Below are positions 8,207 through 28,800 of a DNA stretch of 36,350 nt, in pieces. Position numbers and translations under genes: made by a program. The DNA is taken from the UHGV virus genome UHGV-0207457. One strand, given 5' to 3'. The stretch's first letter is position 1; every line of letters starts with the position of its first letter. Under the pieces are notes generated by a model. The model was not told the DNA's origin, did not search any database, and was given only the letters and a program-made list of their open reading frames with translations. Source of the stretch: a virus.

Positions 8207-8293
8207 ACAACCCCCTTAAATCTTAATACCCGTATTTATCAAAATATCAACAATTTAATAAATACCTTCATATTTCGTAATGAGGGTAATTAC

Positions 8294-10198: not shown

Positions 10199-10270
10199 TA
10201 ACTCGCCGTCCTTCGGGGCGGCTTACTCCTAAATATTGTTAATCCAATAACAATTAAATAAGGGGTGATT

Positions 10271-10765
10271 ATGAGTTTAGAACTAATTCCCTTAGTAATT
10301 CGTAAAGGCGAAAAAATCACGCTGGCGAATGAAGAGGGTGTAACAATTCAGGTAGGAAATAGTAAAGGTATCATTTATCAGGTTGATGATACTCCGGCTA
10401 ATCACGAGATTAAAACCTTAGATTTTGCCGAGGGTAAATATACCATCGTAACCACTTTGGAAGAAGAACTGGTATCAATGCAGGAATTAACTGTATTGCC
10501 AGTATTCGCCAAACAATCCAAAAAAGAACATCTGCGGGAGACTATCGCCAAAATCGAGCAAGTTATTTTCGCCCGTTTATCTGGGGACGAAGCCGCATTA
10601 TCTCAAATGACCGTGAAAGGGAATACTTTCGCCTATGAGTCATTAGGTGTTCTCCAGCAATTAAAGACTGATTATGAACGTCAACTGTCTAAATTAATTC
10701 AAGCCGAACGACGTAAACAGGGAATTAGCCCGATTAAAAATATCAAATTACGTCTTACGCGATAA
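10271..10765 (+). CDS. Head morphogenesis / head-tail joining protein (164 aa), in the position of lambda gpW
   Basis: ATG at 10271 with AGGGG RBS (track start 10265 is GTG); between terminase and portal. Confidence 0.55.
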   Translation: MSLELIPLVIRKGEKITLANEEGVTIQVGNSKGIIYQVDDTPANHEIKTLDFAEGKYTIVTTLEEELVSMQELTVLPVFAKQSKKEHLRETIAKIEQVIFARLSGDEAALSQMTVKGNTFAYESLGVLQQLKTDYERQLSKLIQAERRKQGISPIKNIKLRLTR

Positions 10766-10775
10766 GGGGTAAATC

Positions 10776-12287: not shown

Positions 12288-12333
12288 TAACCAACGGGGG
12301 GCGCAATGCCCCCAATTAATTAAAGGTGATTAA

Positions 12334-14340
12334 ATGCTTAAATTTCGCCGCGAACTTAACGGTTACGGTGGAGTTATTAACGAAGGGCATAACGATCAAT
12401 ACGAATTTGAAATTGCTTTCTCCAGTGAACAGCCTTATCAGCGCCAATTCTGGGATGAGCAAAATCAAGAAATGGTGGTATTAGATGAAATTCTGGTACA
12501 TACACCGGAAGCGGTTGATCTGTCTCGTCTGAATAATAACGCTCCGTTGCTGTTTAATCATAATTTCGATAATCATTTAGGTGTCGTTTGTAACGCTCGA
12601 ATCGATGCGGATAAAGTAGGCCGTGCGACCGTTAGATTCTCTAAGCATGGCACTTTGGCTAATGATATTCGTAATAAAGTCATTGAAGGTACGATGGAAA
12701 AAATTTCTGTCGGTTATGACATTAAAGAATATCACATCGATTATGCCAAAGGACAATTGATTGTTACTAAGTTTGTTCCTTTCGAATTAAGTTTTGTTAC
12801 GGTCCCGGCGGACGATTCGGTCGGTTTAAATCGCTCTCTAAATACTATCACAGTTAATTTGGAGGCTAAACGCGATATGACTAAAGAACAAATCGAAGAA
12901 ATCAAAGAAGAACAAGAACCCGCTCAGGTTGAAGAAACTCCGGTAGAAGAAAATAAAGAATCGGAAGTTGAAGAAACTCAAGAGCGCCAAGTTGAAGAGA
13001 ATAAAGAAGATGAAAATCTCGAAGACGGAAAAGACGCTGAACATCCTGAAAGTGTTGATGATGATAGTTCAACTGTTCGGGAAACAGAAGAAGTAAAAGA
13101 AGAACGTGAAGCCGTTCCGGTTGAAGAAGAAAAAACCGAGGAAGTGGCTGAACGTTCCGAAGAAGACGAATTAGAAATCCGCGAGATCGCGCGGGAACTA
13201 AATATTGACGACGAAGAATTAAAACGCGCATTGGCAATTAAAGACATGACGCCGGAAGCATTCCGCACTAAGGCACTAAATAACATTACCAATGCTCAAC
13301 GTATTAACGAACAAATTAATAAGGAACAAATCATGGAAAAAACTTTCGATCTTAATAACGTAATCCGCTCCCTGGTAGATGGCGACGTGCTCGGCGCTAA
13401 CGAAGCTGAATATTCCGCTATGGCTGCTGGTGCTGCAATGCAGCGTGGTCGTGCTGCTCGCGGTGGCTCTGTATTCGTTCCGGCTGCTGCTCTGCGTGCT
13501 GCTTCCGAAGGTAACACCAAAGCTACTCTGACCGCTGTTACTGATGAAAAACTGCTGACTGAATCCTACATCGAAATGCTGTTGCCTCAGAGTGTTTTAG
13601 GCCGCCTCGGTGTAACCGTTCTGTCTGGCCTGACTTCCCCGATCGCTGTTCCGAAAATGACCGCTTCCAGCGTCGAAGCCTTTGGTTTTGTTGACGAAAA
13701 TGGGGCTGCCCCCGAGTCACATGCGGAATTTTCGAACGTGAAAATGGCTCCTAAGACGTTCGCTGGTGGGAATCCGATCAGCAGAGCTAGCATAAAGCAA
13801 GTTCCCGGCATCGCTACCCTGATCACTGATCACATTAACAAATCTGTTCGGATCAAACTGGAACAACTGATTCTGTCTGACAAAGACAACGAGCGCGGTC
13901 CGGCTGGCCTGGTTAAGCAACTGGTAGACGCGGGTCGCGTTACTAAGAAAGCCGCTTTCTCTTACAAAGACTTCCTGAAAGAAATTGCAGCACTGACCGA
14001 CGCTGGCGTTCCTGCTCAGGCGATCAAGTTTGCGATGAGCGGTGCAACTGCTGCTGAACTGGAATCTACCCTGAAAGATAACGGCGTTTCCGGTTATATC
14101 ATCGAAAACGGCAAACTGGCTGGTTACGAAGTAGTTACTTCTGGTGTTATCCCGGCAGACCACATCGTTCTGGGCGCGTTTGACGGTATCACCATTGGTG
14201 AGTGGGGCGGTCTTGAACTGGATATGGACGACACTACCTACCGCGCACAGTCTGCTATCGTTCCGCGAATCTGGGTAGACCTGGATTATGTTGTTACTCA
14301 GCCGGAAGCTCTGAAAGTTCTTCACATCTCCGCTGAATGA
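12334..14340 (+). CDS. Fused prohead protease - scaffold-like acidic linker - HK97-fold major capsid protein (668 aa); ends in TGA
   Basis: N-terminal ~170 aa carry prohead-protease-like motifs (LLFNHNFDNHLG, ISVGY, ELSFVTVPAD); residues ~180-300 are Glu-rich; C-terminal ~340 aa is capsid-like. Confidence 0.85.
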   Translation: MLKFRRELNGYGGVINEGHNDQYEFEIAFSSEQPYQRQFWDEQNQEMVVLDEILVHTPEAVDLSRLNNNAPLLFNHNFDNHLGVVCNARIDADKVGRATVRFSKHGTLANDIRNKVIEGTMEKISVGYDIKEYHIDYAKGQLIVTKFVPFELSFVTVPADDSVGLNRSLNTITVNLEAKRDMTKEQIEEIKEEQEPAQVEETPVEENKESEVEETQERQVEENKEDENLEDGKDAEHPESVDDDSSTVRETEEVKEEREAVPVEEEKTEEVAERSEEDELEIREIARELNIDDEELKRALAIKDMTPEAFRTKALNNITNAQRINEQINKEQIMEKTFDLNNVIRSLVDGDVLGANEAEYSAMAAGAAMQRGRAARGGSVFVPAAALRAASEGNTKATLTAVTDEKLLTESYIEMLLPQSVLGRLGVTVLSGLTSPIAVPKMTASSVEAFGFVDENGAAPESHAEFSNVKMAPKTFAGGNPISRASIKQVPGIATLITDHINKSVRIKLEQLILSDKDNERGPAGLVKQLVDAGRVTKKAAFSYKDFLKEIAALTDAGVPAQAIKFAMSGATAAELESTLKDNGVSGYIIENGKLAGYEVVTSGVIPADHIVLGAFDGITIGEWGGLELDMDDTTYRAQSAIVPRIWVDLDYVVTQPEALKVLHISAE

Positions 14341-14469
14341 ACTCCTGTAGAACCATCTGAACCTTCCCCCGATTCGGGGGAAGAAAATCTGATTCCTAAA
14401 CCGGAAGAAGATTCCCAGACGGTTACGGCGAAAGCCACAGCTAAAAAACAGCGTAAAACTAAAGAATAA
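14341..14469 (+). other. In-frame 42-codon extension after the capsid gene TGA; candidate programmed readthrough tail
   Basis: No stop from 14341 to TAA at 14467-14469; encodes TPVEPSEPSPDSGEENLIPKPEEDSQTVTAKATAKKQRKTKE; 20-nt core 14422-14441 is identical to 20337-20356. Confidence 0.5.
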
Positions 14470-14474
14470 TAATT

Positions 14475-14502
14475 AGCCCTGCCTAACGGTGGGGCTTTTT
14501 TG
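14475..14502 (+). terminator. Intrinsic terminator after the capsid extension
   Basis: AGCCCTGCCTAACGGTGGGGCT followed by TTTTTT; near-identical copy at 20390-20418. Confidence 0.65.
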
Positions 14503-14531
14503 TATGTAAATACTCCATAAAGGGGGTAACT

Positions 14532-14822
14532 ATGTTCAAATTATCAGAATCACAATTAAATCGAATGTTTAAAAGTGCTCCTGTATTTGTGGTGGAAGGT
14601 GGTAAATCAATTCGTGCTTATCATGAAATTACTACTACCGACGAATCAGGGGTAATGACAGAAACAGAATTTCTATTCTGTCGTGAGGGAGACTTAAAGC
14701 AAGGTGATATTGTCACAGTAGAAAACCAGCGTTTCAAAGTTCAATACGTTAAGCGTAATGGTGATAATACAACTGATTGCTTTATTACTCTGGCAGGGGG
14801 TACACATGCTCGCTATCGTTAA
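14532..14822 (+). CDS. Head-tail connector/adaptor protein (96 aa)
   Basis: Strong RBS AGGGGG; position directly after the capsid gene. Confidence 0.55.
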   Translation: MFKLSESQLNRMFKSAPVFVVEGGKSIRAYHEITTTDESGVMTETEFLFCREGDLKQGDIVTVENQRFKVQYVKRNGDNTTDCFITLAGGTHARYR

Positions 14823-15228
14823 TAATATGCCTAGACTGAAAATCAAACGCGCCTTGCAAGATATTATCGAACAAGATTTAGGTCTGGCTTTAAACGTAGA
14901 ACAAACTCAGCAAGGCTTTAGTGATGACGTGGTTTGTTGGATTACTGGTATGAATGAGACTTACACTAGGGTCCGTGGTGGTAATGCAATGCAAGCTGAA
15001 TGCGTTATCGAAATGCAGTTATATTCTCAGATTCATGAAACGAAAATTCATGAGGGTATTTGCCAGATAATCCAGATTCAGCCGGATAACCCACGATTTA
15101 AAGATTTGGGCTTCTCTATTTCAGATATCACTCCAGTAGCCTCTAATACCGATTATGACGATGATTCTAGTGATGGGGGTATCGTTGGGACACTTAGCCT
15201 TAAATTTTCTTATCTAGCGCGTTTTTAA
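14806..15228 (+). CDS. Head-tail joining / tail completion protein (140 aa)
   Basis: ATG at 14806 after AGGGGG, overlapping the previous stop (track start 14758 is upstream in the same frame). Confidence 0.55.
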   Translation: MLAIVNNMPRLKIKRALQDIIEQDLGLALNVEQTQQGFSDDVVCWITGMNETYTRVRGGNAMQAECVIEMQLYSQIHETKIHEGICQIIQIQPDNPRFKDLGFSISDITPVASNTDYDDDSSDGGIVGTLSLKFSYLARF

Positions 15229-15237
15229 GGGGTAATA

Positions 15238-16071
15238 ATGAATATTACACAAGATAACTTAGATATTTTCACTGGATCACATGTTGAAGTGTCGATCTCT
15301 AACCAGATAGACAATCAGGTCGACTTTTTCGATCCTAGCTTTAGTTCTATGGAGAACATCGCAGCATTCCCTACGCTAACCGAATCCACAGAGATAGAAA
15401 CTCTGGAAGAGTACGATCAGGACGCTACGGGGAAACTTGCTGGTTATCGTAGACTGGAACCGACAACACTCACATTAAACCGTGTTCTTGACGATGAACA
15501 TCAAGCAATGTTGATGAAAGCGGTAGAGGATAAAACACCTTTACGCTTCCGTATGTTCTATGTTGTGAACTCTGGCTATAGTGCTGCTAACACTGGTTAC
15601 TATGTCATCTATGACGCTTATGTCACTAGTCACAAAACCCGTGGCGCAGATAACAAAGCTGTAACACTGGAATTTAAACTTGAACCAGATGGCGGGATTT
15701 TGGCAAGGGGTATAGCGACCGAGGGAAAAATTCTGCGACAAGGGGATTATGGCGTAGGTGCAGGTGTACATCCATTCACGGGTCCAATTGATAGTGATGC
15801 TTTAGCAGGAAACCGTTTCGTAACTTACAAGGGAACTGCTAGCGGTAATCCATACTCAGCCGACACATCATTAATTCACCTTCAAGCTAATGAGCATGGC
15901 GCATGGCAATTAACCTGTAATACTTCCGGTGCACCACGTTTACGTGTCCGAAATATTCAGGAAAACGGTCGCTCTGAATGGATCAAGGTATATTCCACCA
16001 ATGAGAAACCGACACCTAGCGAAATTGGCGCAGTGGCTAAGACTGATAGAATCGACTTCGGTGAGTATTAA
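15238..16071 (+). CDS. Structural protein (277 aa) whose C-terminus shares a KPTPxEIGA module with the tail fibre; possible fibre-attachment/collar protein
   Basis: RBS AGGGG; C-terminal YSTNEKPTPSEIGAVAK parallels the fibre's YHEGDKPTPAEIGAYTK, with ~80% nucleotide identity across the 27-nt core. Confidence 0.6.
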   Translation: MNITQDNLDIFTGSHVEVSISNQIDNQVDFFDPSFSSMENIAAFPTLTESTEIETLEEYDQDATGKLAGYRRLEPTTLTLNRVLDDEHQAMLMKAVEDKTPLRFRMFYVVNSGYSAANTGYYVIYDAYVTSHKTRGADNKAVTLEFKLEPDGGILARGIATEGKILRQGDYGVGAGVHPFTGPIDSDALAGNRFVTYKGTASGNPYSADTSLIHLQANEHGAWQLTCNTSGAPRLRVRNIQENGRSEWIKVYSTNEKPTPSEIGAVAKTDRIDFGEY

Positions 16072-16100
16072 GATTGCTTACCTAAATAAAACATGACGCG

Positions 16101-16134
16101 GGGAGGTTAACGCCTCCCTTATTCCTGTTTTATG
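16101..16134 (+). terminator. Intrinsic terminator
   Basis: GGGAGG-TTAACG-CCTCCC followed by a T-rich tract. Confidence 0.5.
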
Positions 16135-16146
16135 TGAGGTGATTAG

Positions 16147-19100
16147 ATGCAATCAATCCAATTTAAACGCACACAAACGGCTGGTAAAAAGCCGACGCCG
16201 GAACAATTATCACAGGGTGAGATCGCCTTACAACTGGCGGACCATGTGATTTACACCAAAGACAAAAATAATAACGTAGTCCAAATTAGTGTTTCTCCAG
16301 AAAAACACGCTGAACTTAACACTAAAGTAGACAATAACAAAACTAGCACTGACCGTGTTATTGCTTCCAACAAACAAGAGGCCGCTAATAATCTGGCTAG
16401 TGCTAAAGCTGAACTGAATCAGACTATTACCACTAAAGACACCGCAACCAATAAGCGCATTGATGCTACCAACACCACTGTTAGTAACTTAACCCAGACA
16501 GTTACGGCAAATAAAACCGATGCCGACACTAAGATCAATAACCTTACGGGGACCGTATCTGCGAATAAGACCGCAATTGAAAGAACCGTTGCCGCAAACA
16601 AATCTGATGCAGATAGCAAACATGCAGCTTTAACGAAAACGGTCACTGACAATAACACCGCGATTAACAACAAGGTTAATACCACTAACACCAACGTTAG
16701 CAACTTAACTAAAACTGTTACTGCAAATAAAACCGATGCAGATAACAAAATTTCTAGCTTAACTAGCACGGTTGCAGCTAACAAGACAGCGATCGAAAAG
16801 ACTGTTTCCGACAATAAGAAAGACGCGGATACTAAGATTACCAATCTTACTGGCACTGTTAACAGCAACCATACCGCAATTAACAACAAGGTAGACCAGA
16901 ATAAATCTTCTACTGATGCCGCAATTGCAGCCGCTAACAAACGAATTGATGGTATTGAAGGTAGCAATGATGCTCTTTACATCAAGAAGAATACCAATAC
17001 TAAGCATGGTGGGTATCTGTTAAGCAAGACAGCTAACTATTTGGAAGACCAGACAGCGAGAGATCTTAACTACTTTGGCGCTTTCCGTACCAATGGTCAA
17101 GATGGACTCATGGATCTAACTCTTAACGTTCCTCATTCTGCCGGTAAAGCGCACGGTCGCGGATTTACTTTCCGTTATGCGTCTGGTGGATCTCGTGTTG
17201 AAACCTATGGTTTTGATAGAGAAGGACAGAAGAACTTTAGCTATAAAATGTATCACGAAGGGGATAAACCGACTCCTGCTGAAATTGGCGCATATACCAA
17301 AGGCGAAATTGATAAGATGTTTATTAAAAATGTCACAATGTCTGTTCCTTCTGGTAGTGAATCCCGTGCTTATTTCAAGATTGCTACGGCTACGATCCCG
17401 CAAAATGGTCGTATGGTAATGCTTCGTATCTTCGGTGGTAACGGTTATAACGTTAACTCCTATGATCAGGTTGACTTTTTAGAAATTGTTATCCGTTCCG
17501 GTAACAATAACCCGAAAGGCGTTAGTATTGCTGCTTATCGTCGAAACTCTTTGAACGTTCATCAAGTATTTGCGGTTAATACTTCCGGTGATAACTACGA
17601 CATTTACGTTAACTACGGTCGTTATACTGATAACGTTATTGTCGAATATGGTAAGACTAGCGGTGTTTCACTGACTGTTCATGACACCCCAGCTATGACT
17701 AACGTTAAGCCGTCTACTGGTGTTACAGATGGACGTGTTATTACAATGTTCAACACCGAAAACAAAGCCGGAACATTGATGTTTGATAATAACGGACAGG
17801 GAACATATGATATTGTCAGTTTGAATAACGATTCAGGTACTGGAAAAAAATATCTTCGTAAATTCCGTAGTAAAGCCGCAGAAACAATCTGGCATGAAAC
17901 TGTTCAAGGTAACGTATATCGTTTAGCGACTGGCACTACCGATTCTAGCGAAGTTCTACGAATCACTGGTCGCACCATGTTTACTGGTAAAGGCGTATTG
18001 GATGCTGGACAAAACGTTCTTAGATTAGAACGTCCTAGTAACCAATCTAACTACATTGAATGGCAGGACCGCCGCAATGGTGCTGATGCTCGTCAAGGTT
18101 GGATCGGTTTTGGTAGTGCGGAAACAAATAACTTCATGTGGTATAGCGATCATGGGAAAAACTCATTTCAGCTAGAAGCTAACGGTCAATGTTCTATATC
18201 CACTGGTGCAAATAAACTTGTATATACCAATGGTGAATATTGCTCTGGCAACTCTAACGCATATCGTATGGCATTTGGTAACTATGGCGCATTCTGGCGT
18301 AATGATGGTGGTAAAGTTTATCTTCTGTCGACGGATGAAAACGATAAGTTGGGCGGCTGGAATACTTATCGACCATTCATTTACGATCTTACTTCCGGTA
18401 ACGTTCAATTAGGCGGTGATGGTAACGAAGATGCATTAACGTTAGAACGTGCTTCTCGTGCCGCTCGTTTTAGCAATAACGTTTACATTAAGAAAGGTTT
18501 TTTGACTTTTGATGCTGGTCGGTCTGGTTCTCGCGATTATATTCGATTTAATCATTGGGGCGATAGTAATAACGCCCGTGATAACGTCTTGTACATAGAA
18601 GATAGTCAAGGCCGACATTTTAGCACAGAGCGTGCGATGGGTACTGGTGCTCTTAAGGCAAACTTCTTAGGCGATCTTGAAGTCGGTGGTAAGTTTACCT
18701 GGGGTAAAAATACAGCTACATCCAGCTTTAATATTCGTGCATGGGGTAATGATTCTCGTAAGCAAGTATTAGAATGCGCGGATGAAAGTGGTTGGCATTG
18801 GTATACCCAACGTGCTGGCGGTCCGGGCACAAATGAAATTAACTTTAGTGTTAATGGCAGTATTCACTCACAAGGGATTGCAACTTCCGGTAATATTAAA
18901 ATAACTGGACCTGATATTGAATTTCGTCGCACTGGCAATAAGCATATCTGGTTTAGAGATCCGAACGGCTTAGAATTAGGTTTGATGTACTGCGATGATG
19001 CTGGTGTTATCCGCTTCCGTGGTCAGAAACAAGGTCAAACTTGGAAACTTGCTGATAAAATGATTCATCTTGAGGCGGGGACTGTCGGCGGGTCTGATAA

Positions 19101-19731
19101 AGGTTTGATTCGTGGTAATGTTGCTGGTGGTAGCTGGGCTAGCTGGCGTGATCGTTCTGCCGGAATCCTCGTAGACTGTCCGAACTCAACCGATTCCGCT
19201 CATAACATCTGGAAAGCTACTCATTGGGGTAAATATCACATTGCAGCAATGGGTGTGCACGTTCCTAGCGGTACTATCACCAATGCTTTAGCTCGCCTAA
19301 ACGTTCACGACGCCAACTTTGACTTTAACGCTGCGGGTGATTTTAGCGCAGGTCGTAACGGTAGCTTTAATGATGTTTACATTCGCTCTGACTCCCGTTT
19401 GAAGATTAACAAGGAAGAATTACAGGACGGCGCATTAGAGAAAGTAAACTCCCTGAAAGTCTACACCTACGATAAAGTTAAATCTCTTAAAGACCGTAGT
19501 GTGATTAAACGCGAAGTAGGTATTATTGCTCAGGATCTGGAAGAAGTATTGCCGGAAGCAGTAGGTATTCAATCCACCGAAGATCCAGAACAACCGGAAG
19601 CAATTAAGACTATTTCTAACTCTGCTGTTAATGCCTTGATTATTAAAGCTATTCAGGAAATGGACGCCAAATATCAAGCTAAGATTGAAGCATTGACTAA
19701 AGAGATTGCCGAACTCAAAGCAACTAAATAA
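16147..19731 (+). CDS. Side (long) tail fibre, T4 gp37 / lambda Stf-like, with tandem shaft repeats and C-terminal intramolecular chaperone (peptidase S74-type) domain (1194 aa)
   Basis: N-terminus MQSIQFKRTQTAGKKPTPEQLSQGEIALQL resembles T4 gp37; YLRKFRSKAAETIWHETV resembles gp37 YLRKVRAKSGGTIYHEIV; two ~72-aa tandem repeats (~16480-16910); C-terminal SDSRLKINKEE...AIQEMDAKYQAKIEALTKEIAELK is chaperone-like. Confidence 0.85.
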   Translation: MQSIQFKRTQTAGKKPTPEQLSQGEIALQLADHVIYTKDKNNNVVQISVSPEKHAELNTKVDNNKTSTDRVIASNKQEAANNLASAKAELNQTITTKDTATNKRIDATNTTVSNLTQTVTANKTDADTKINNLTGTVSANKTAIERTVAANKSDADSKHAALTKTVTDNNTAINNKVNTTNTNVSNLTKTVTANKTDADNKISSLTSTVAANKTAIEKTVSDNKKDADTKITNLTGTVNSNHTAINNKVDQNKSSTDAAIAAANKRIDGIEGSNDALYIKKNTNTKHGGYLLSKTANYLEDQTARDLNYFGAFRTNGQDGLMDLTLNVPHSAGKAHGRGFTFRYASGGSRVETYGFDREGQKNFSYKMYHEGDKPTPAEIGAYTKGEIDKMFIKNVTMSVPSGSESRAYFKIATATIPQNGRMVMLRIFGGNGYNVNSYDQVDFLEIVIRSGNNNPKGVSIAAYRRNSLNVHQVFAVNTSGDNYDIYVNYGRYTDNVIVEYGKTSGVSLTVHDTPAMTNVKPSTGVTDGRVITMFNTENKAGTLMFDNNGQGTYDIVSLNNDSGTGKKYLRKFRSKAAETIWHETVQGNVYRLATGTTDSSEVLRITGRTMFTGKGVLDAGQNVLRLERPSNQSNYIEWQDRRNGADARQGWIGFGSAETNNFMWYSDHGKNSFQLEANGQCSISTGANKLVYTNGEYCSGNSNAYRMAFGNYGAFWRNDGGKVYLLSTDENDKLGGWNTYRPFIYDLTSGNVQLGGDGNEDALTLERASRAARFSNNVYIKKGFLTFDAGRSGSRDYIRFNHWGDSNNARDNVLYIEDSQGRHFSTERAMGTGALKANFLGDLEVGGKFTWGKNTATSSFNIRAWGNDSRKQVLECADESGWHWYTQRAGGPGTNEINFSVNGSIHSQGIATSGNIKITGPDIEFRRTGNKHIWFRDPNGLELGLMYCDDAGVIRFRGQKQGQTWKLADKMIHLEAGTVGGSDKGLIRGNVAGGSWASWRDRSAGILVDCPNSTDSAHNIWKATHWGKYHIAAMGVHVPSGTITNALARLNVHDANFDFNAAGDFSAGRNGSFNDVYIRSDSRLKINKEELQDGALEKVNSLKVYTYDKVKSLKDRSVIKREVGIIAQDLEEVLPEAVGIQSTEDPEQPEAIKTISNSAVNALIIKAIQEMDAKYQAKIEALTKEIAELKATK

Positions 19732-19738
19732 TAAAAGT

Positions 19739-19757
19739 CGGGGGACTAGTTCCCCCG
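19739..19757 (+). terminator. Stable hairpin after the fibre gene (weak U-tract)
   Basis: CGGGGGA-CTAG-TCCCCCG. Confidence 0.4.
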
Positions 19758-19787
19758 TAATAACAATTTTAATTAAGGGGTAATTCT

Positions 19788-20258
19788 ATGTCTCAATTTA
19801 ATGATATTTTTACTGGTGGTCTGGTAAGTCTGTTCTATCACGCTGATACCACTAACACCGCTCTCGATCACTCCGGTTACGAAGAAATTAAAGAGTGCGC
19901 TGGCTTCCCTGAAACTGCTATCGAGCGCGGTACTGTAGAAGTTAAATCCTTCTCTTCTCAGTACAACCGTAAGCTGGTAGGTAAACTGAATGTTCCTGAT
20001 CTGACTCTTACGGTGAATTACATCCCCGGGGATAGTGTCCATGAGAAGCTCATAAAGGCTGCCGAAGACGGTACTCGAATCCAGATTAAAGTAGAGTATT
20101 ACGTATCAGCGGATAAGCAGACTGGTATTCGCACCGCTTTCAACGGCTTTATTTCTAAAGTTGCTATGAACGGTGGCGATGAAGAAGTTGTAACCAAAGA
20201 GTTTACCTTCGCGGTGGACGGAAAGCCGATCAAACAGGAAATCTTCACTGCCGGATGA
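19788..20258 (+). CDS. Major tail (tube) protein, lambda gpV N-domain-like (156 aa); ends in TGA
   Basis: DLTLTVNYIPGDSVHEKLIKAAEDGTRIQIK parallels lambda gpV [33 protein letters not shown]; placed ahead of the G/T chaperones and tape measure. Confidence 0.65.
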   Translation: MSQFNDIFTGGLVSLFYHADTTNTALDHSGYEEIKECAGFPETAIERGTVEVKSFSSQYNRKLVGKLNVPDLTLTVNYIPGDSVHEKLIKAAEDGTRIQIKVEYYVSADKQTGIRTAFNGFISKVAMNGGDEEVVTKEFTFAVDGKPIKQEIFTAG

Positions 20259-20384
20259 ACTAACGAAGAACTTCCTTTAATAGAACCGGAACCACTACCG
20301 GAACATGAAGCGGTGGTGATTCCAGAAGTAGAAGAAGTTACGGCGAAAGCCACAGCAAAACGAGGCCGCAAGGCTAAGAATTAA
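20259..20384 (+). other. In-frame 41-codon extension after the tube gene TGA; candidate programmed readthrough tail
   Basis: No stop from 20259 to TAA at 20382-20384; encodes TNEELPLIEPEPLPEHEAVVIPEVEEVTAKATAKRGRKAKN; shares the 20-nt core and terminator with the capsid extension. Confidence 0.5.
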
Positions 20385-20389
20385 TTTTA

Positions 20390-20418
20390 AGCCCTGCCTT
20401 AATGGTGGGGCTTTTTTA
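20390..20418 (+). terminator. Intrinsic terminator after the tube extension
   Basis: AGCCCTGCCTTAATGGTGGGGCT followed by TTTTTT. Confidence 0.65.
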
Positions 20419-20432
20419 TTGGAGTTATCAAA

Positions 20433-20939
20433 ATGGCAAATGTCGTTAAAGTTCCTGGCTGGATCGGGTCATCTGCTGTATCGGTGACGGGTAAGCGATG
20501 GATGAAAGAAGCACTAACAGCTTTAAAAGTTCCGGCTCCGCGTAATATGTCGGCAATGGCTGGTCGTGGTATGGATACGGTTGTAGCTACTGCTGCATGG
20601 TCTACTTCATTGGGTAATAACTGGGGTGTAACTGCTTCAAACTATCCGGTAACTGACATGCGCGGTAAAGGGTCAATGGAGAACCCCGAAAACGTGGGCG
20701 TAGGGCGTCTGATTGGCGTTATCGTTGGTCAATTCAATGGCGGTACTCCTACTATGGCTGTATATCTCCAGAACGGTAGAGCGGGGAATATAACCGTTAA
20801 TTTGGGTGGTGCTACTGTCACTGTTCCTTATAACAGTATGCAAAGTGGTTTTCATTACTATTGGTTAAGCAATCCTCCGGCTGCTTTCCTCAATAACATT
20901 AAGAAGACTGGCACTAAGCAGACTTTGAAAATCTCTTAA
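20433..20939 (+). CDS. Hypothetical tail-associated protein (168 aa)
   Basis: RBS GGAG; Gly/Ala/Thr-rich; between the tube gene and the chaperone genes. Confidence 0.55.
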   Translation: MANVVKVPGWIGSSAVSVTGKRWMKEALTALKVPAPRNMSAMAGRGMDTVVATAAWSTSLGNNWGVTASNYPVTDMRGKGSMENPENVGVGRLIGVIVGQFNGGTPTMAVYLQNGRAGNITVNLGGATVTVPYNSMQSGFHYYWLSNPPAAFLNNIKKTGTKQTLKIS

Positions 20940-20981
20940 ATTCTAAATAAACATATCGAATTAACTTAAGAGGAAACAAGA

Positions 20982-21290
20982 ATGAATATTAATGAAATGC
21001 TGAAAGCTCTTTCTCCGAAACGCGAATCTCTGACCATCGGTGGATTCACTTTCTATGCTCGCCCTATGTCAGTAAAAGAATTTAACGAACATGTTTTCAA
21101 TACCGATAAAGATGACCGTGATGAACGTTCGATTCTTCGTTGTATTGAAGATGAAGACGGTAAACCGGTATTTGAATCTATGGAACAAGTTAAGGCACTG
21201 TATACTAACGTCCGCAGTGAATTAATCGGTTTGGTTGCTCAAGCATCATTGATGCAAGATCCGGCGGTAATTGAAAACGAGGTAAAGTAA
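20982..21290 (+). CDS. Tail assembly chaperone, gpG-like (102 aa)
   Basis: RBS GAGGA; small acidic protein directly upstream of the tape measure with a downstream overlapping -1 frame ORF. Confidence 0.6.
   Translation: MNINEMLKALSPKRESLTIGGFTFYARPMSVKEFNEHVFNTDKDDRDERSILRCIEDEDGKPVFESMEQVKALYTNVRSELIGLVAQASLMQDPAVIENEVK
21282..21290 (+). other. Candidate -1 frameshift site GTA-AAG-TAA at the stop codon (tRNA-Lys AAG to AAA slip) giving a G-T fusion
   Basis: The -1 frame opens at 21275 and runs to 21661; its overlap with the G frame is only 16 nt and contains A-AAG immediately before TAA. Confidence 0.35.
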
Positions 21291-21319
21291 ACCCGCTTCT
21301 GTGTTTCTATTTCCGGCAA

Positions 21320-21661
21320 ATGATGAGATCGGGGCTTAGTAAAGATGAAATGGATAATATGCCAATCACTCTGTTTTGGAAATTATACATTTTCGACACC
21401 TACTTAGAACCACAAAGCCCCGCGTTTCATGATATGCAGAATGCGATGTTGCAATATTCCATGTATATGACGTCGCAAGGAATGACTCGAGAAACTGCAC
21501 GCAAACTCAAGCCTAGCCAATTCCAATTAATTAGAGAAGAAAAACTCTTTAAAACTAAAGAAGAACTGGAAGAACTTGCACGCAAGAAAGAAGAAGAACG
21601 TAAAGCGGCAATGCTGAACATGTTTGATACATCTTTGCTTGAGAAACTCAGAAGCGGTTAA
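21320..21661 (+). CDS. Tail assembly chaperone T-frame segment (113 aa from first ATG); probably made mainly as a G-T fusion
   Basis: In the -1 frame relative to the G gene; ends just before the tape measure start. Confidence 0.5.
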   Translation: MMRSGLSKDEMDNMPITLFWKLYIFDTYLEPQSPAFHDMQNAMLQYSMYMTSQGMTRETARKLKPSQFQLIREEKLFKTKEELEELARKKEEERKAAMLNMFDTSLLEKLRSG

Positions 21662-21672
21662 AGGGGTAATTT

Positions 21673-24105
21673 ATGACAAAACATATAGTAACAATAGAAG
21701 GGGATAATAAAGGTCTAAGGAGAAGTACCAATGAAGCCGCCGACCTTCTCGATAGTTTGTCCGAAAAGGCAAGTAATATTGATTTTGGTGGTGGCTTATC
21801 TGGTCTGACTGGATCTCTTCGTGGGATCGCTGGCTCTGCTGGTTTGGCTGCTGGTGGTATCGGCTTAGTTGCGACCGCAGTGGTTGCAGCCGCTAAAGCT
21901 GGCGCGGAATACGTTAAACAGTATTCAGAAGTATCTAAGGCGACCGGACTCTCGATTGAATCCCTTCAAAGACTGGAAAAGGAATTTTCTGGTACTGGCC
22001 TAACAGTTGAAAAATTCGGTGATATCAACAAAGACACCTTAGATAAGATGGGTGATGCATGGGCTAACGGTGGTGGTATTGCTGATGACTTAGAATCGGT
22101 TGGTCTTAAGTTAGAAAACTATGCTCACTTCATGACTGATCCGCAAGGTGGTATGAAAGCGGCGATCCAAGTGTTCTATGACATGAAGAAAGCCGGAAAA
22201 TCAATGGCTGAAATCAAGTTCATGATGGAATCTTTAGCCAGTGATTCAAGTCATATGACCAGCCAGCTTGAGAAATATAATAGTGCTCAAGAGGCGATGA
22301 TCGCTATTCAGAATCAATCTGTTAACGTCACCGAAGAAAACGCTAAAAAATATGATAAATTTTCTCAGAATATTAATAAGCTGGAAAATAACCTGAAAGG
22401 CGCAGCCATGACCATTTCTGGTCCTTTGGTTGATAGCTTAAACTGGTTATTTGACTGGTTTAATATTGATTGGGAAAAGAGTTCTCTATTCAGGGCATTA
22501 GATCGACTGAATAAAGAAGGCAAGACCGCAACTGGTGGTATTCTTAACGCCAACCATAAAGACGCTCAAAAGATTATTGACAAGTACAATAAAGAAAAGC
22601 GTTGGAATAATCTGGCAGATTGGGAAAAGGCCGCGATACGTGGTGCTGGTGTCGACCCTCGTACTGCTGGCTTTGATGTTGAAGGATTTAAGAAACGTTT
22701 TGGTGGGTCTTATAAAACTTCAAGTGGTGCTCTGATTGTCGTAGATGCAGGTGAACATCTAACACGCAAGGCAGATCCTAACACTGATTTGACTATACCA
22801 AATAAACCAGTAAGACCAGAATCATTGGGTAAATCTGGCAACGAGAAGAAAGCCGAGGAAGAAGCCAAAAAGAAAGCGGAAGAGGCAGCTAAAAAGGCTA
22901 AGGAAGCCGCAGAAAAAGCACAGAAAGCACGCGAGGATGCAATCAAGCGACTGAATGCACTTGATGTTAAATTGCAAGGGCAAGTTGCAGCGTCTATCAC
23001 TTCTCAAAATAGCCAGTTGCAAAACAGCTTAAAAGATGTGAACGACGCGTTAGCTCTGGGCTTAATCTCTCAGGAAGACGCAGCCGCGAAACGCCAGGCG
23101 CTAATCGATCAGAATACTGAAAACGTTTATAAAATGATGTTGGGTGCTGATCCGATTGATGCTCTGAATGCTTTAACACAATTGCAACAAATCAGGGACA
23201 ACGAGCTAGAAAGCCATAAACGTTTACTTGATGGTAAAGCTATCTCCTACGAAGAATATATGCGTCGTGTGAACGATACCGAGCAAAACTATTCTCAGAT
23301 TGAAAATTCTTTACAGGGAATGGATGGTTATAAAACCAATCAATTAACTAGTGGTTATGATTATCAAGACTCAAATAATCCGTTTGCTAAATTTAATGCA
23401 ATCGATAAAGAGAAATCGGATGCTGAACAAGATTATAAGACCGATAAACTCAAGATTGACGGTATTAATGATCCGGCTAAACGGATGGCTGCATTAGAAA
23501 AACTCAATGAAAACCATCAAAAACGGATGGCTGCAATTGAAAAGAAATATGCTGATGCTCGTCAGTCAATAGCTGATGATATGTATGGCGGTTTTGCTGC
23601 TGCAATGACTCTCTTCGGGCAGGAAAACACTAAAGCTATGCAGATGGCTTTCAATGCTCATAAGGCATTCTCCATTGGACAAGCGACGGTGAACATGTGG
23701 ACGGCTGCTACCGATGCATGGAACGATCCGACCAACGTCACCACAGGTCAAAAAATTGCTGCTGCTGCATTGGCTGTTTCTCAGAACATGGGGAACATCG
23801 CAAACATCAAGTCTACTAACGTTAGCGGTATGGCTCATGATGGTATCGATAACATCCCTCGTGAGGGTACATGGTTGCTTGATAAGGGTGAACGAGTAGT
23901 TGATCAGCGTACTAACGGTGATTTGAAAGACTTCTTATCTGCTCAAAAATCAGGCGGTGGTAACTCTCAGCCGATTGAAGTTAATGCGCCTTTGAACATT
24001 AACGGCAATGTTAATAGCTCAGACAAGATGGTTATGGATGCTATCAAACGTCACGCTAAGTTAGTTGCTCAGGCGGTAGAAGACGCACAGCGTCGTAAGA
24101 TGTAA
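21673..24105 (+). CDS. Tail tape measure protein (810 aa)
   Basis: Size; Gly/Ala-rich hydrophobic N-terminal region; K/E/A-rich coiled-coil (KKAEEEAKKKAEEAAKKAKEAAEKAQKARE); follows the G/T chaperones. Confidence 0.85.
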   Translation: MTKHIVTIEGDNKGLRRSTNEAADLLDSLSEKASNIDFGGGLSGLTGSLRGIAGSAGLAAGGIGLVATAVVAAAKAGAEYVKQYSEVSKATGLSIESLQRLEKEFSGTGLTVEKFGDINKDTLDKMGDAWANGGGIADDLESVGLKLENYAHFMTDPQGGMKAAIQVFYDMKKAGKSMAEIKFMMESLASDSSHMTSQLEKYNSAQEAMIAIQNQSVNVTEENAKKYDKFSQNINKLENNLKGAAMTISGPLVDSLNWLFDWFNIDWEKSSLFRALDRLNKEGKTATGGILNANHKDAQKIIDKYNKEKRWNNLADWEKAAIRGAGVDPRTAGFDVEGFKKRFGGSYKTSSGALIVVDAGEHLTRKADPNTDLTIPNKPVRPESLGKSGNEKKAEEEAKKKAEEAAKKAKEAAEKAQKAREDAIKRLNALDVKLQGQVAASITSQNSQLQNSLKDVNDALALGLISQEDAAAKRQALIDQNTENVYKMMLGADPIDALNALTQLQQIRDNELESHKRLLDGKAISYEEYMRRVNDTEQNYSQIENSLQGMDGYKTNQLTSGYDYQDSNNPFAKFNAIDKEKSDAEQDYKTDKLKIDGINDPAKRMAALEKLNENHQKRMAAIEKKYADARQSIADDMYGGFAAAMTLFGQENTKAMQMAFNAHKAFSIGQATVNMWTAATDAWNDPTNVTTGQKIAAAALAVSQNMGNIANIKSTNVSGMAHDGIDNIPREGTWLLDKGERVVDQRTNGDLKDFLSAQKSGGGNSQPIEVNAPLNINGNVNSSDKMVMDAIKRHAKLVAQAVEDAQRRKM

Positions 24106-24109
24106 TTAA

Positions 24110-24156
24110 AAGCCCTCATAGTGATAAATAATCATAAAACTATGGGGGCTTTTTCT
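24110..24156 (+). terminator. Hairpin/terminator after the tape measure gene, overlapping the next gene's RBS
   Basis: AGCCCTCATAG ... CTATGGGGGCT followed by TTTTT. Confidence 0.45.
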
Positions 24157-24717
24157 ATGTTCAAATCCAAGAATATTAAAATCACAGATTTTACTCTTAA
24201 ATCAAAACAACCTTTCTTCAAGGCGCAATCTATCTCCGGTAAGTTCCAGCGTCGCTTTACTGGCATCCATTTTTACGAAGCAGAATTTACCGCGAATTAC
24301 ATGGCTCAGGATATTAACGAAGTAAAAGAATTTGTAGCACGTCACCTTTTTGGTCGTCCTTTTAGTGTGCCACTGTCTTACTTTTCAAAATATACAGGTG
24401 ATGTACGCCAGATGGTAACGGCTGCTGCTGGTACTGCTCGCGGTGGGCGTAAGGTGAGAATCTCCAACTTCACCGGAACACTGAAAGCGGGAACTGTCAT
24501 CCAGTTTGAGAACCACAAGAAAATCTACACGATCACCGAAGACGTGAAATCAGGTGGTGAAATGAAACTCTTCCCTAACTTGCGTCAGAACGTCCTGGCG
24601 GGTGAGGTGATCAAGTATCAGAACGTAGAAGGTGAATTTGTTCTCAAAACTGAAAATATCGATTGGAAGATCGCCCAGATTGGCAAGATGAAATTCGAAT
24701 TAGTGGAGAATGTATAA
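24157..24717 (+). CDS. Minor tail protein, gpM/distal-tail-like (186 aa)
   Basis: ATG at 24157 (track start 24121 is GTG inside the hairpin); first of the M-L-K-I/J series. Confidence 0.55.
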   Translation: MFKSKNIKITDFTLKSKQPFFKAQSISGKFQRRFTGIHFYEAEFTANYMAQDINEVKEFVARHLFGRPFSVPLSYFSKYTGDVRQMVTAAAGTARGGRKVRISNFTGTLKAGTVIQFENHKKIYTITEDVKSGGEMKLFPNLRQNVLAGEVIKYQNVEGEFVLKTENIDWKIAQIGKMKFELVENV

Positions 24718-25370
24718 TGGCAACTATTCAGGAATCATTCAGCAAACTATGCACTAATCTTGACTTCATCGAGGTCTACAACGACCAGACAGGTCAGAAC
24801 GTGTCTAGATTGACGCTACCGCAGCTTTTTTCCACTGGATCGATGTTTCACATTATCGAAGTGATTACAGCGTCAGGGGACGTTCTACGGCTTACTGATG
24901 GGTATTTCGATTTGGACTATAACGGATTTACGTATCTCGCAACGGGTGATTTTCTTCAAATCTCATCGAATACCGAAGAGAAGGAGATCAACAACAACGG
25001 GATCAACGTAACCGTTTCTAACGTTCGCGAAGAATACATTACTCTCATTCGAAACAAGCAATTCGATAAATCAGATGTGAAAATCGAGATGGTGTTCCTG
25101 AACCCCAACACGGGCAAAGTTGAAACCACTTACCCTGTTTTCCGTGGGGTAGTCGATTCCATCGGGATTAACATCGAACATGAAGATGATGAGTGTAAAA
25201 ACGAATCAGAATTTCAGCTTAATAGTATCTGGGAAGTTCTAGATAAAAACGCTCGTAGTCATGCCTCCGATGGTATCCACCGGTCCTATGTTGGAAACGA
25301 GAACGATCTATTCTTCTCTCGTGCCGGGAAGTGGCAAAGCGAGTCGAAGTGGTTTAGCTCTAAGAAATAA
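24717..25370 (+). CDS. Minor tail protein, gpL-like (217 aa)
   Basis: ATG at 24717 overlapping the previous stop (TAATG); position and size. Confidence 0.55.
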   Translation: MATIQESFSKLCTNLDFIEVYNDQTGQNVSRLTLPQLFSTGSMFHIIEVITASGDVLRLTDGYFDLDYNGFTYLATGDFLQISSNTEEKEINNNGINVTVSNVREEYITLIRNKQFDKSDVKIEMVFLNPNTGKVETTYPVFRGVVDSIGINIEHEDDECKNESEFQLNSIWEVLDKNARSHASDGIHRSYVGNENDLFFSRAGKWQSESKWFSSKK

Positions 25371-25416
25371 TCCCTTCTCCCTAAGCCTAGTAAATAACAG
25401 CATGGAGGTATTCAAC

Positions 25417-25836
25417 ATGCTAAAAACTAGGCTTATCACCGATTACATCAATTCTTTAATAGGTCAGGAGTTCGTTCAGGGTGAGAATGATTGCAATCTC
25501 ATTGCATGTAAGATCATCGATATTCTCGCTGGTACTGACCTATATAATTCTCTTTATAAAAAATATTCAACTAAAGAAGAAGGCTTGAAAATCTGCAAAG
25601 AATTAAGCGGGTATTCAAACATCCTTCAACCAATTAAGAAACATTTCAAATTAGTCACTGATGATTTACAGGACGGCGACTTACTGGTCACAGCCCACAA
25701 ATTAGGAAACCGTAATTATTATTCCGTAGTTCCTCATTATTCCGGTTATGGCCTCGTTGAAGAAGATGGTATCTGGATGACCATTCCTGTTTCAGACATT
25801 GACTATGAACAAGTTTATAGATTCGGGGGTGAATAA
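25417..25836 (+). CDS. Tail assembly protein gpK-like with NlpC/P60-type Cys/His motif (139 aa)
   Basis: ATG at 25417 after GGAGG; GENDCNLIACKI (Cys) and VVPHYSGYG (His) resemble the NlpC/P60 catalytic pair; stop overlaps the J start (TAATG). Confidence 0.6.
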   Translation: MLKTRLITDYINSLIGQEFVQGENDCNLIACKIIDILAGTDLYNSLYKKYSTKEEGLKICKELSGYSNILQPIKKHFKLVTDDLQDGDLLVTAHKLGNRNYYSVVPHYSGYGLVEEDGIWMTIPVSDIDYEQVYRFGGE

Positions 25837-28800
25837 TGGGATTTGAAATATTAGTAGGCGCGGTTATTGCTGGTGCGTCTGCTGGGATGGCTGCTGCTGC
25901 AACATTTTCTGTTATGACCGCAGTCGCTATCGGTATGGCTGCTGGTGCAATGACCTTGATCGCTTCCACTGTAGGCGCACCAAAAACACCGAAAGTACAA
26001 AGCCCAGATAATGCGGTGACACTAGGAACATCAAACGATCCGAAGACAGTATTACCCGTTCTTTTCGGTACTACCCGCACGGGTGCAATCTGCGTTTACA
26101 AGGCAATTTCTAAGCAAGAAAACAATAAGTTAGTGCAAATCTTCGCTATTGCCGAGGGTGAAATCGACCATTACAAAGCACTGTTTATCGATAACAAAAA
26201 TGTTCTTGTTGGTAAGAACATGACGATCCGTGATGGTGTACTGGACAAAGGCAACATTAAAGAAGAATACCGGAAAGTTTTAGAGGTTGAGTTCCGCACT
26301 GGTAAGAATCCTAACACCGCTTTGTCACTGGCAAAACGTCACTTAGGGTCAGACTGGAACGACAACTACAAAGGCAATGGTATTGCGACCATGTGTATTG
26401 TGTTACGTCGTGATGACAAATCTTTGGCTGCTGGTGTTGATATTCTTCAGCCAAATAGCCAGGTAGCAGTAGACGTTTGCGGCCTTAAAATCCGTAACCT
26501 TGAAACCAATGCTATTGAGGCTAGCACTAACGGCGTGGATCAGATTTTCCACTACCTAACAAATGAAAAATATGGCTTATCCGTACCAATTGAAAACATT
26601 AACGTTGATTCATTCCTGAAAGTACGTAAACAAGTACGCCAGATGGATCTACATTCAAACGGTGCATGTGATCCGAACGCCAGCTTTAAAGAGAACTTGA
26701 CTAATCTTATGCAGACTTTCGGCGGGGTGATGTTCGAATCCTTTGGAAGAATTACCCTGAAACTGGATGCTCCTGATATTGTTAAGCATACCTTCAATGA
26801 AGACAATATCATGATGGGTAAGGTATCACTGAAAACAGGTGGCACTAACGGTTATTTCAATACCATTAACGCGATGTATCAAGAACCATCAATCGACTAT
26901 TCAGAGCAAATGCTACGTTATCCGGCTGATGCTGAAAACGATGCTACTATTCGTCAAGATGGTCGAATTATCGCTAAAGATATTGAATATCGTTTTGTTA
27001 AGTCTAAAGCCCAGATTGATAAACTTGCGAGTATTGAACGAAATAAATCTCGTATCACTCAGGTTATCAGCTTTATGACTACTGACGCATTCACTGCCGA
27101 AGTTTGGGACGTTATCAGCGTAACCTATGATGAATTGAAGCTGAATAATTCCTTATGGCGTATTACTGCAATTGATCGCTCGATTGATTCTGGTATTGCT
27201 GGGATGATGACTATCACCGCCACAGAATATAATTCTCAGGTTTATACTGACCTGAACTATGCGGCAACTCCAGACAATAGACCAAGTGGTTTACCGGATT
27301 CAATGACAGTACAGAAGCCTACTAATTTCAGAATTAAGGCAACTGGTGAAACCATCTATGGCAAAAACGTTACTTTGACATGGGATGCACCGGAAGATTT
27401 TAACCGCTACGGCTTCCAGATTGATTACCGTGTAAGCGGATCACCTAACTGGATTAAGCTCGGTCAGACTTCACAGCAAATTTTCAGTGTCAATGCACTG
27501 GCTAAAGATCGTTCCTACGATTACCGAGTTTGTGCTTTCGGTATCATCGCTCGATCCGATTGGGTAGAACTGGTTAACCAGAATCCGACTGTTACCTATG
27601 AATTGCCGACTCCGGTTATTCGAATCAAAAATCAGGGTAGCACGCCTGGTACTTTCGAAGGTAATGATCTGATTATCGAATGGGAAAACCAGCAACAATT
27701 AGATGTGATGATCAACGGTGAAACTAACAAGTTTAGTGACCTGTTTGAAGCATACATTATCAAGGTTACTAACAAGGCTGGTAAGTCTATTCAGTACCGT
27801 ACCCGCGATCCTGAATCATGGACTTATACGCTTGATATGAACCAGTTTAACGGCCTTTCGCGTCAACTTACGGTAGAAGTATCAGCTAAGGGCTATAACA
27901 ACTCAGAGAGCGCCCCAGCGCGTTTAGTGGCTATCAACCCACAACATAAGCCAATGAAAGGTTTTAGTGCGCGTGGTGGCTTTAATACTGCGTTTGTTAG
28001 CTGGGCGGATGACGTAGAACATGACTATGCAGGGTCAATCATCCAGTATGCAACCGACAACACTTTCTCAGATGCAAGGGCAGTAAGCACGAATAGTGTT
28101 AGCCATACTTCCTTTGATATTGCTGACGGTGATTATTATATCCGTGGTGCTCACTACGATATTTTCGGTATGGATGATGCTGTTTGGTCTGAACCGTATT
28201 TCATGCAAATGAAGTCTACGATTAGTTGGGACGATCAGGACAAAGAAGCACTGGAAGACCTGATCGGTTTACAAGATCGCTTAGATGAAACTATCGCGGA
28301 TGCTATTAAGCAAGCTGGCGCTAATGCCGATGCTAAAATTGATGCAATGCATAAGCAAATCACTACCGAGACGGGTAAAACTGTTCAAGCCTCAGCCGAT
28401 ACCTTAAAGAGTCTGATTGCTTCTGGTGATAAGGCAAGTTCAACTAAGATTGATCAGGTTAAAGCTGAACTGAAAGGCGATATCACCAAAGAAGTTAGCG
28501 CCTCCGCTACAACCCTGAAACAAGCAATTGCAACCAGTGAGGCAGCAAGCGCAAGTAAGATTGATCAAGTTCGGGTAGAAATGGATGGCAAGATTGCTGG
28601 TGTGAATCAGGAAGCGGACGTTAAGATCGATGCTTTGAAAGGAACCATTAACAGCAAATACAATCTAGCGGTTAATGCAGATGGTCGCGTGGCTGGTATT
28701 CACATGAGCGCAACTAACGATCCGGCACAACCGACTAAAATCATCTTTACGGCTGATAAAATTGCTGTAGCTCCGCAGAACGGGACCGATGTTTGCCCGT

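Follow-up and report, generated by a model that had tools for sequence, protein, structure and literature searches.

Putative UGA readthrough modules at the ends of the major tail tube and major capsid genes of a siphovirus-type Escherichia coli prophage

In the RNA phages Qβ and MX1, the major coat gene ends in a leaky UGA, and record NC_001890 annotates a minor readthrough product, A1 (about 5%), whose extension starts with Thr and a proline-rich linker. For phages with double-stranded DNA (dsDNA), recoding catalogues list frameshifting for the C-terminal extensions of capsid and tail proteins (PMC5009743). Frameshift-derived, C-terminally extended minor subunits are known as gp10B of T7/T3, from Lactobacillus phage A2, and as Cps and Tsh of the Listeria phages PSA, A118, and A500, in which the capsid and tail genes are both recoded within one phage (PMC5009743). 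Here, we describe the end of the major tail tube gene in the virus genome UHGV-0207457, a stretch of 36,350 nucleotides (the window in what follows) that holds a nearly whole siphovirus-type E. coli prophage. The gene stops at a TGA behind which the reading frame stays open, and a homologous extension stands behind the major capsid gene. Judging from sequence comparisons, it is likely that selected UGA readthrough makes minor, longer forms of the capsid and tube proteins that end in a tail of shared type.

The resemblance to A1 lies in a leaky UGA ending a major structural gene, in the same host and with the same hexamer, UGA ACU, which also stands at the annotated leaky coat stop of the Qβ record NC_001890. 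However, Qβ is a single-stranded RNA phage with an unrelated coat fold and an extension of about 196 amino acids, whereas the window prophage has dsDNA, extensions of 25–45 amino acids that are predicted to be disordered, and the same module on two genes. The frameshift-derived long forms are alike in that the major capsid and major tail genes are recoded at their 3′ ends, but they arise by −1 or +1 shifts at slippery sites and often add an immunoglobulin-like (Ig-like) domain. The extensions of the window lie in frame behind the UGA, are short, have no detectable domain, and are homologous between capsid and tube; frame 0 is the open one, the +1 and +2 frames contain stops, a slippery site is absent, and no folded domain is predicted (predicted local distance difference test, pLDDT, below 50), which sets them apart from the frameshift class. 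Finally, gpV of phage λ has the same tube fold and an addition at the same C-terminal point. There, every subunit carries an Ig-like domain, whereas the addition in the window would depend on readthrough, would be present on a minority of subunits, and is predicted to be unstructured. In open-access papers and preprints, we found no report of UGA readthrough in the structural genes of tailed phages.

The tube gene and the elements at its 3′ end are the following.

19788..20255, plus strand: coding sequence of the major tail tube protein, 156 amino acids, with a λ gpV-type tube domain (gene with stop, 19788-20258).
20256..20261, plus strand: TGA-ACT, the proposed leaky stop (TGA at 20256-20258), preceded by GCC GGA.
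20259..20381, plus strand: in-frame extension of 41 sense codons, TNEELPLIEPEPLPEHEAVVIPEVEEVTAKATAKRGRKAKN, the proposed readthrough product.
20337..20356, plus strand: 20-nt core GTTACGGCGAAAGCCACAGC, coding for VTAKATA, identical to capsid positions 14422-14441.
20382..20390, plus strand: TAA TTT TAA, the double in-frame stop that ends the extension (TAAs at 20382-20384 and 20388-20390).
20389..20419, plus strand: intrinsic terminator after the extension, a 10-bp stem and then a T-rich run.

The preliminary description of this locus, made from the letters of the window, had pointed to a tube TGA followed by A and to a frame open for 41 codons, and both are read directly in the sequence. The extension consists of an acidic Pro-rich spacer, TNEELPLIEPEPLPEHEAVVIPEVEE, and a basic tip, VTAKATAKRGRKAKN. 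Its first TAA (20382) lies six bases ahead of the intrinsic terminator, and in most variants the stops after the extension are doubled. An open run of 41 codons has a P of about 0.11 at this composition; since the run alone is not significant, the case rests on comparison with relatives.

The tube protein itself matches PHROG 158 “major tail protein” (E 2e-21), and its matches to Pfam TTP_11 and TTP_12 are slightly under their cut-offs. For an AlphaFold2 model of the tube homologue P0004, the best Foldseek matches are the λ gpV tube structures 8k36_A and 7t4f_A (E 7e-7). This fold, together with the position of the gene upstream of the tail chaperone and tape-measure genes, bears out the earlier view of a gpV-like tube protein without an Ig-like domain. 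The PHROG 158 profile has 376 positions, of which the window protein aligns to 15-158; therefore, other members are probably longer at the C-terminus. In the AlphaFold2 prediction, the greater part of the tube core has a pLDDT of 80–88, and residues 158-198 stay below 50 almost throughout; the tube extension is predicted to be disordered. Neither the tube extension nor the capsid extension of the window has a Pfam or PHROG match.

The corresponding elements of the capsid gene are as follows.

12334..14340, plus strand: prohead protease-major capsid fusion gene (Pfam Peptidase_S78 and Phage_capsid; PHROG 617, E 4e-89).
14341..14472, plus strand: capsid extension of 42 codons, TPVEPSEPSPDSGEENLIPKPEEDSQTVTAKATAKKQRKTKE, followed by TAA TAA (codons 14341-14466; stops 14467-14472).
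14363..14383, plus strand: predicted 8-bp hairpin inside the capsid extension, CTTCCCCC-GATTC-GGGGGAAG (arms also CUUCCCCC/GGGGGAAG).
14475..14502, plus strand: intrinsic terminator after the capsid extension.

The closest solved structure to the capsid protein is 8gta_A, and its gene ends in GCT GAA TGA A, with the TGA at 14338-14340. Both extensions finish, as had been proposed, with VTAKATAK and a Lys/Arg-rich tail, KRGRKAKN in the tube and KKQRKTKE in the capsid. The 20-mer said to be shared by 14422-14441 and 20337-20356 is identical in the two places, and the identity is exactly 20 nt because the flanking bases differ; in the tube copy, it lies 32 nt upstream of the terminator stem. A degenerate TAKAT[A/V]K pattern occurs at these two sites only in the window, with 0 expected (100 shuffles). 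The likeness of the terminators was described correctly as well: 14475-14496 and 20389-20413 differ in the loop only, and they are the two best plus-strand terminator-like sites in 8000-27000.

The choice of stop codon in these two genes stands out. Among the 21 plus-strand open reading frames (ORFs) of at least 90 amino acids between 8294 and 31620, 19 end in TAA, and TGA is found in the capsid and tube genes only, each time followed by A; among the late genes, these two presumably have the highest expression. Of the stop codons in E. coli, UGA is the most prone to leak, and highly expressed genes avoid it (PMC4989110). Trp-tRNA-Trp is a competitor of release factor 2 (RF2) at UGA, with readthrough of about 2% (37 °C) to 4% (25 °C) in E. 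coli K-12 reporters (PMC10570021).

The relatives compared here comprise 36 unique nucleotide variants, 15 of the tube and 21 of the capsid extension, from E. coli, Salmonella, and Providencia. TGA followed by A is invariant in 15/15 tube variants, and TGA-A[C/A]T in 21/21 capsid variants; a sense codon, TAA, or TAG was found at the TGA position in none of the extension-bearing variants. Thus, both the identity of the proposed leaky stop and its 3′ context are conserved across three genera, as would be expected of programmed readthrough of the Qβ A1 type. Behind the TGA, frame 0 has 0 stops in the 36 variants, while each of the other two forward frames has 1–6 stops in every variant. In codon-blind nucleotide alignments, the indels of the tube extension are of 6 and 9 nt only, and the gaps of the capsid extension, of 48, 24, 42, 3, 3, 6, 3, and 9 nt, are all multiples of three, whereas immediately beyond the second stop, where the loop and T run of the terminator lie, the gaps are mostly of 1, 2, or 4 nt.

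Codon usage agrees with this pattern. A log-likelihood score was trained on the structural genes of the window, and the extensions were compared with 41-codon in-frame pieces. In frame 0, the score per codon is 0.246 for the tube extension and 0.396 for the capsid extension, and real genes give 0.38 ± 0.15; out-of-frame gene pieces score −0.54 and −0.84, and the other two frames of the extensions fall in that range. Dinucleotide shuffles reached the observed score in 9/5000 cases for the tube and in 0/5000 for the capsid. With the frame kept and a codon-usage score within the range of real genes, the extensions behave as coding sequence in these two respects. A coding function on the opposite strand was considered too, but most tube variants have stops in the reverse frames, and the capsid extension is not spanned by any minus-strand ORF of 50 amino acids or more.

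The preliminary description had suggested a search of related genomes for the basic-ended motif after capsid and tail genes, and the extension is indeed present behind both genes in all close relatives and behind the capsid gene in Salmonella and Providencia as well. All 24 of 24 IMG/VR loci with a tube protein 83–99% identical retain TGA-ACT, and the frame behind it stays open for 41, 39, or 36 codons. Capsids of at least 83% identity, including 25/25 of those of at least 90%, all keep TGA-A[C/A]T with 28–45 codons; the same stop context is kept by the 18/18 loci of one capsid comparison, by 14 further metagenome copies, and by three loci whose capsid C-terminus is merely 40% identical. A Salmonella prophage capsid (49% identical) continues with TGA-ACT and 33 codons, TPVEPSEPLPDNGESETPSVTAKATKRGRKPKE, and a Providencia prophage capsid (46% identical) with TGA-ACT-AAC and 25 codons, TNEELPEEEPLPVATEKSTKRRKSK, each before a different terminator; the peptides have the same overall character as those of E. 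coli.

Other relatives do without the extension. Tube alleles of 72% identity or less, from E. coli, Salmonella, Edwardsiella, Providencia, a JGI contig, and phage DCP80, lack it and end in TAA (TAA TAA in two lineages), with the terminator directly after, and almost every one of the distant capsids (48% identity or less) has TAA as its stop and lacks the module. In the metagenome locus L322, the tube gene has a 40-codon extension and then the terminator type usual for extension-less tubes. Overall, the capsid extension is widespread (E. coli, Salmonella, Providencia) and looks ancestral, and the tube extension is confined to a subset of E. coli prophages. Among 5,426 complete E. coli genomes, 38 match a 2-kb query around the tube extension at 86–99% identity, and the match is chromosomal in every case. 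A DNA search of the GenBank phage collection with window positions 19700-20500 gave no match; the nearest phage record is DCP80, whose extension-less tube is 44% identical. When viral contigs were searched with a degenerate TAKATAK-coding pattern, the module appeared, among the matches listed, in this prophage family only, the rest being chance. A capsid-alignment scan of genome contigs yielded distant relatives only, all without the module, and no intermediate lineages were gained.

Several observations nevertheless weigh against selected readthrough. The variants that carry an extension share kinship, and because they are related, the counts above are not independent events. The ratio of nonsynonymous to synonymous polymorphism (pN/pS) is 0.42 in the tube extension and 0.71 in the capsid extension, whereas the last 100 codons of the genes themselves give 0.13 and 0.41, respectively, and variable sites are spread evenly over the codon positions of the extensions. 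Weak amino acid constraint of this kind is compatible with a disordered linker, but it is no proof of coding. Synonymous divergence is 0.16 in the tube extension, lower than the 0.38 of the gene body. In addition, natural E. coli strains may show less UGA readthrough than K-12. The Edwardsiella lineage carries the basic tail out of frame, and therefore the extension is dispensable in that lineage. In Edwardsiella tarda (L157, 3787-3851; the same in L187), the capsid gene ends in GGG TGA TAC with frame 0 open for 9 codons, and a basic tail, ..VSVKSGRKPKTDN, follows in the −1 frame with an ATGA stop/start overlap, so that it is either a decayed module or one with another expression route.

The last point of this kind is that compensatory changes are seen in three small hairpins, some of them through nonsynonymous substitutions. 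The first, a GGC-GAAA-GCC mini-hairpin within the 20-mer (20342-20351), pairs in 16/16 variants, its variable pair being C-G, U-G, or A-U. The second is the 8-bp hairpin of the capsid extension: its Salmonella copy (L154, about 4115-4140), CTCTCCCC..GGGGAGAG (arms also CUCUCCCC/GGGGAGAG), keeps 8/8 pairs through two compensatory, nonsynonymous swaps, which suggests an RNA-level constraint atop coding at this place. The third reads GGUGG/CCACC or GGCGG/CCGCC in tails of the KKVGRPPKAK type. Taken together, the low synonymous divergence and the compensatory hairpin changes imply some constraint on the nucleotide sequence, which the preliminary description had not foreseen. A second, nucleotide-level constraint, or else gene conversion between copies, may underlie this pattern.

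Some of these observations would also be expected if each TGA were followed by an untranslated, structured 3′ region of 125–130 nt, acting as an mRNA stabilizer, a processing site, or a 3′-derived small RNA, and if the open frame and the basic “peptide” were by-products of a GAA/CCG-rich, A-rich RNA. Conserved pairing of the mini-hairpin, amino-acid-changing swaps in the capsid hairpin, the paired changes in the KKVGRPPKAK tails, and low synonymous divergence with a fairly high pN/pS all fit such a region; moreover, folding is stronger in the two regions than in shuffled sequence (z −3.2 and −5.8). What an untranslated RNA leaves unexplained is the invariant TGA-A while every other structural gene uses TAA, the multiple-of-three indels up to the second stop only, a frame 0 free of stops next to two forward frames with stops, and the coding-like codon usage of that frame. 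For the tube spacer, RNAalifold gave a covariation term near 0 and no conserved structure, Rfam searches gave nothing near any threshold, and the spacer hairpins vary between variants or are deleted. A purely RNA explanation is thus unlikely, and an RNA function could coexist with readthrough instead of replacing it.

The preliminary description had held that the same module on two unlinked genes argues for function or for recent duplication rather than for chance. The first part is favored by the conserved in-frame continuation; the second is not, as the two modules of the window have 77% overall identity with many gaps and their spacers have diverged, so that the copying is not recent. Only in its 3′ half does the tube module closely agree with a capsid variant: more than 36 nt are the same as in a capsid tail of the KRGRKPKE type (L003/L004, Salmonella), which differs from the capsid tail of the window itself. 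The 5′ end of the tube module (TGA ACT AAC GAA GAA) is similar to that of the capsid variants of Providencia and of the 28-codon type in E. coli. On these similarities, the simplest history would make the capsid module the older of the two, with a later transfer that joined it to the tube gene exactly at the stop codon.

Since the 3′ half was clearly copied by recombination, it may be asked whether the extension is just a neutral relic, either of a C-terminus cut by a nonsense mutation or of a capsid 3′ end and terminator pasted behind the tube gene, without selection. The decayed, out-of-frame Edwardsiella copy and the relaxed amino acid constraint would agree with this. However, a relic should have collected stops and frameshifts, and none is present in the 36 variants from three genera despite many indels and substitutions; the TGA never reverts to sense and never becomes TAA or TAG; and the spacers have had time to diverge. 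Furthermore, the terminator is not a fixed part of the shared module, for Salmonella, Providencia, and L322 carry the extension with other terminators. As the extension persists where its terminator is replaced and keeps its frame, the reading of the 20-mer as a mere piece of a terminator or a recombination scar, which the preliminary description had named as a way to be refuted, does not hold, and we regard a neutral relic as very improbable.

A similarly small probability attaches to a free small peptide, unfused to the tube protein and made by termination-reinitiation or from an internal start. An in-frame GTG is in fact present in the V(V)IPE segment of all tube variants (codons 15–20 of the extension), and the ATGA overlap in Edwardsiella would lead into the basic tail of the capsid. 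On the other hand, no clear Shine-Dalgarno sequence is seen upstream of the GTG, and the frame is kept from the TGA itself, not just from the GTG, as the indels upstream of the GTG are of 6 and 9 nt. The capsid extensions of the window, of the L003 type, and of Salmonella have no in-frame ATG, GTG, or TTG at all; therefore, the capsid extension of the window could be translated only by ribosomes that pass the TGA.

There is scarcely any chance that the UGA is decoded in a specific manner, by selenocysteine insertion or by a phage-encoded suppressor tRNA, even though a conserved UGA is also what a selenocysteine codon would look like. The bases after the UGA vary (ACTAAC, ACTCCT, AATAAC, ACTTTC), and neither a conserved hairpin directly 3′ of it nor one about 11 nt downstream is present, which makes decoding of the selenocysteine type unlikely; there is no Rfam match either. 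No suppressor tRNA is encoded in the window, whose sole tRNA call, a 91-nt tRNA-Glu (anticodon TTC) made by ARAGORN at 14993-15083 on the minus strand, lies inside the plus-strand ORF 14758-15228 and is probably a false positive.

If selected UGA readthrough operates here, most ribosomes would terminate at the UGA and yield the normal 156-residue tube protein, and a small share, plausibly a few percent, would insert Trp by means of host tRNA-Trp and translate 41 more codons up to the doubled TAA ahead of the terminator. The junctions would read ...QEIFTAG-W-TNEELPLIEPEPLPEHEAVVIPEVEEVTAK in the tube and ...HISAE-W-TPVEPSEPSPDSGEENLIPK in the capsid. The product would be a tube subunit about 4.6 kDa longer, with an acidic Pro-rich spacer, a Lys/Arg tip (VTAKATAKRGRKAKN), and predicted disorder. 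The part of gpV to which the tube core aligns is the N-terminal tube domain, and the extension begins at the attachment point of the gpV Ig-like domain, which in λ faces outward. Joined at that point, the extension should project from the outside of the tail. The capsid would obtain its homologous tail in the same way, and with readthrough of a few percent, an assumed T=7 head, and a tail set by an 810-residue tape-measure protein, there would be a few tagged copies per head and per tail, all with one shared tag. In sum, capsid and tube proteins probably bear, in a small fraction of copies, one and the same flexible tag with a positive tip.

As to what such a tag would do, our best guess, by analogy with Ig-like decoration domains, is that the cationic tip binds polyanions (lipopolysaccharide, capsule, DNA) weakly and electrostatically. 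Some capsid tails in the family, KKVGRPPKAK and KKAGRPPKAKE, share the GRP core and basic flanks of the AT-hook (PF02178), but their scores of 14.2–14.7 bits (E 0.03–0.04) are below the Pfam cut-off of 17.4 bits, and the window tails KRGRKAKN and KKQRKTKE do not match. It is tempting to go further and to see in UGA-A, the Glu/Pro spacer, and the cationic AT-hook-like tip a portable cassette that can be grafted onto the stop codons of virion genes, with RNA hairpins as an additional level of constraint; on this view, tailed dsDNA phages would have their first case of programmed UGA readthrough, and head and tail would share a polyanion- or DNA-binding tag. We give this wider proposal an even chance. 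Should readthrough be real, a conserved module of this sort in enterobacterial prophages would constitute a new recoding class for tailed phages and a rare bacterial case of selected near-cognate UGA decoding, and it would offer a natural low-copy display site on the head and tail of an E. coli phage.

Annotation bears on these regions in two ways. In the RefSeq record of E. coli 24AR0357 (L241, NZ_CP195351.1), the Prokaryotic Genome Annotation Pipeline (PGAP) leaves both extensions unannotated, as gaps of about 175–195 nt after the capsid and tube genes (2322-2514 and 8264-8437), and virion components may therefore go systematically unrecorded. Conversely, the 198-residue P0004 (L146, an ENA contig) shows W at the position of the stop and was considered as a natural sense-codon variant, but its DNA reads TGA; the gene call therefore apparently used a code in which TGA is Trp. 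Calls of this type can mimic natural sense-codon variants.

Basic stretches also occur behind two kinds of TAA-ended capsid genes. In L193 and L195 (IMG/VR; capsids 40–41% identical), the next in-frame codons after the TAA, EKQKQKRKRKLK..., run into the terminator; they could be an A-rich tract that arose by chance or a remote counterpart of the basic tail. In DCP80 (L001, 3607-3672; PQ671644.1), a small ORF with a basic end, MSLGAEALDAAPVKKSKSASG, lies after the capsid TAA and upstream of the terminator. The DCP80 record is classed as Straboviridae, at 141 kb, yet it contains a siphovirus-like head and tail module.

The genes around the tube gene are the following.

16147-19731: long fiber gene, with a gp34-like trimerization domain and an S74 chaperone domain.
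20433-20939: gp38-like tail-fiber adhesin gene, between the tube and tail chaperone genes (Pfam Gp38_N, E 4e-15; PHROG 1121).
20982-21290 and 21320-21661: tail chaperone genes, the second T-like, downstream of the tube gene and after the gp38-like gene.
21673-24105: tape-measure gene, 810 amino acids, downstream of the tube gene.

The tube gene thus stands between the long fiber gene and the gp38-like gene. In Edwardsiella, the gp38 gene is directly 3′ of the fiber gene, and in L147 and L322, no gp38-like gene follows the tube gene. An obligatory linkage of the tube extension to the downstream gp38-like gene is ruled out by L322, which has the extension without gp38. Relative to the first chaperone ORF, the second (21320-21661) occupies the −1 frame, with an open stretch that starts at 21275, and GUA AAG UAA at 21282-21290 might serve as an A_AAG −1 slip site at the stop. 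Use of the canonical G/GT frameshift by this phage is likewise probable.

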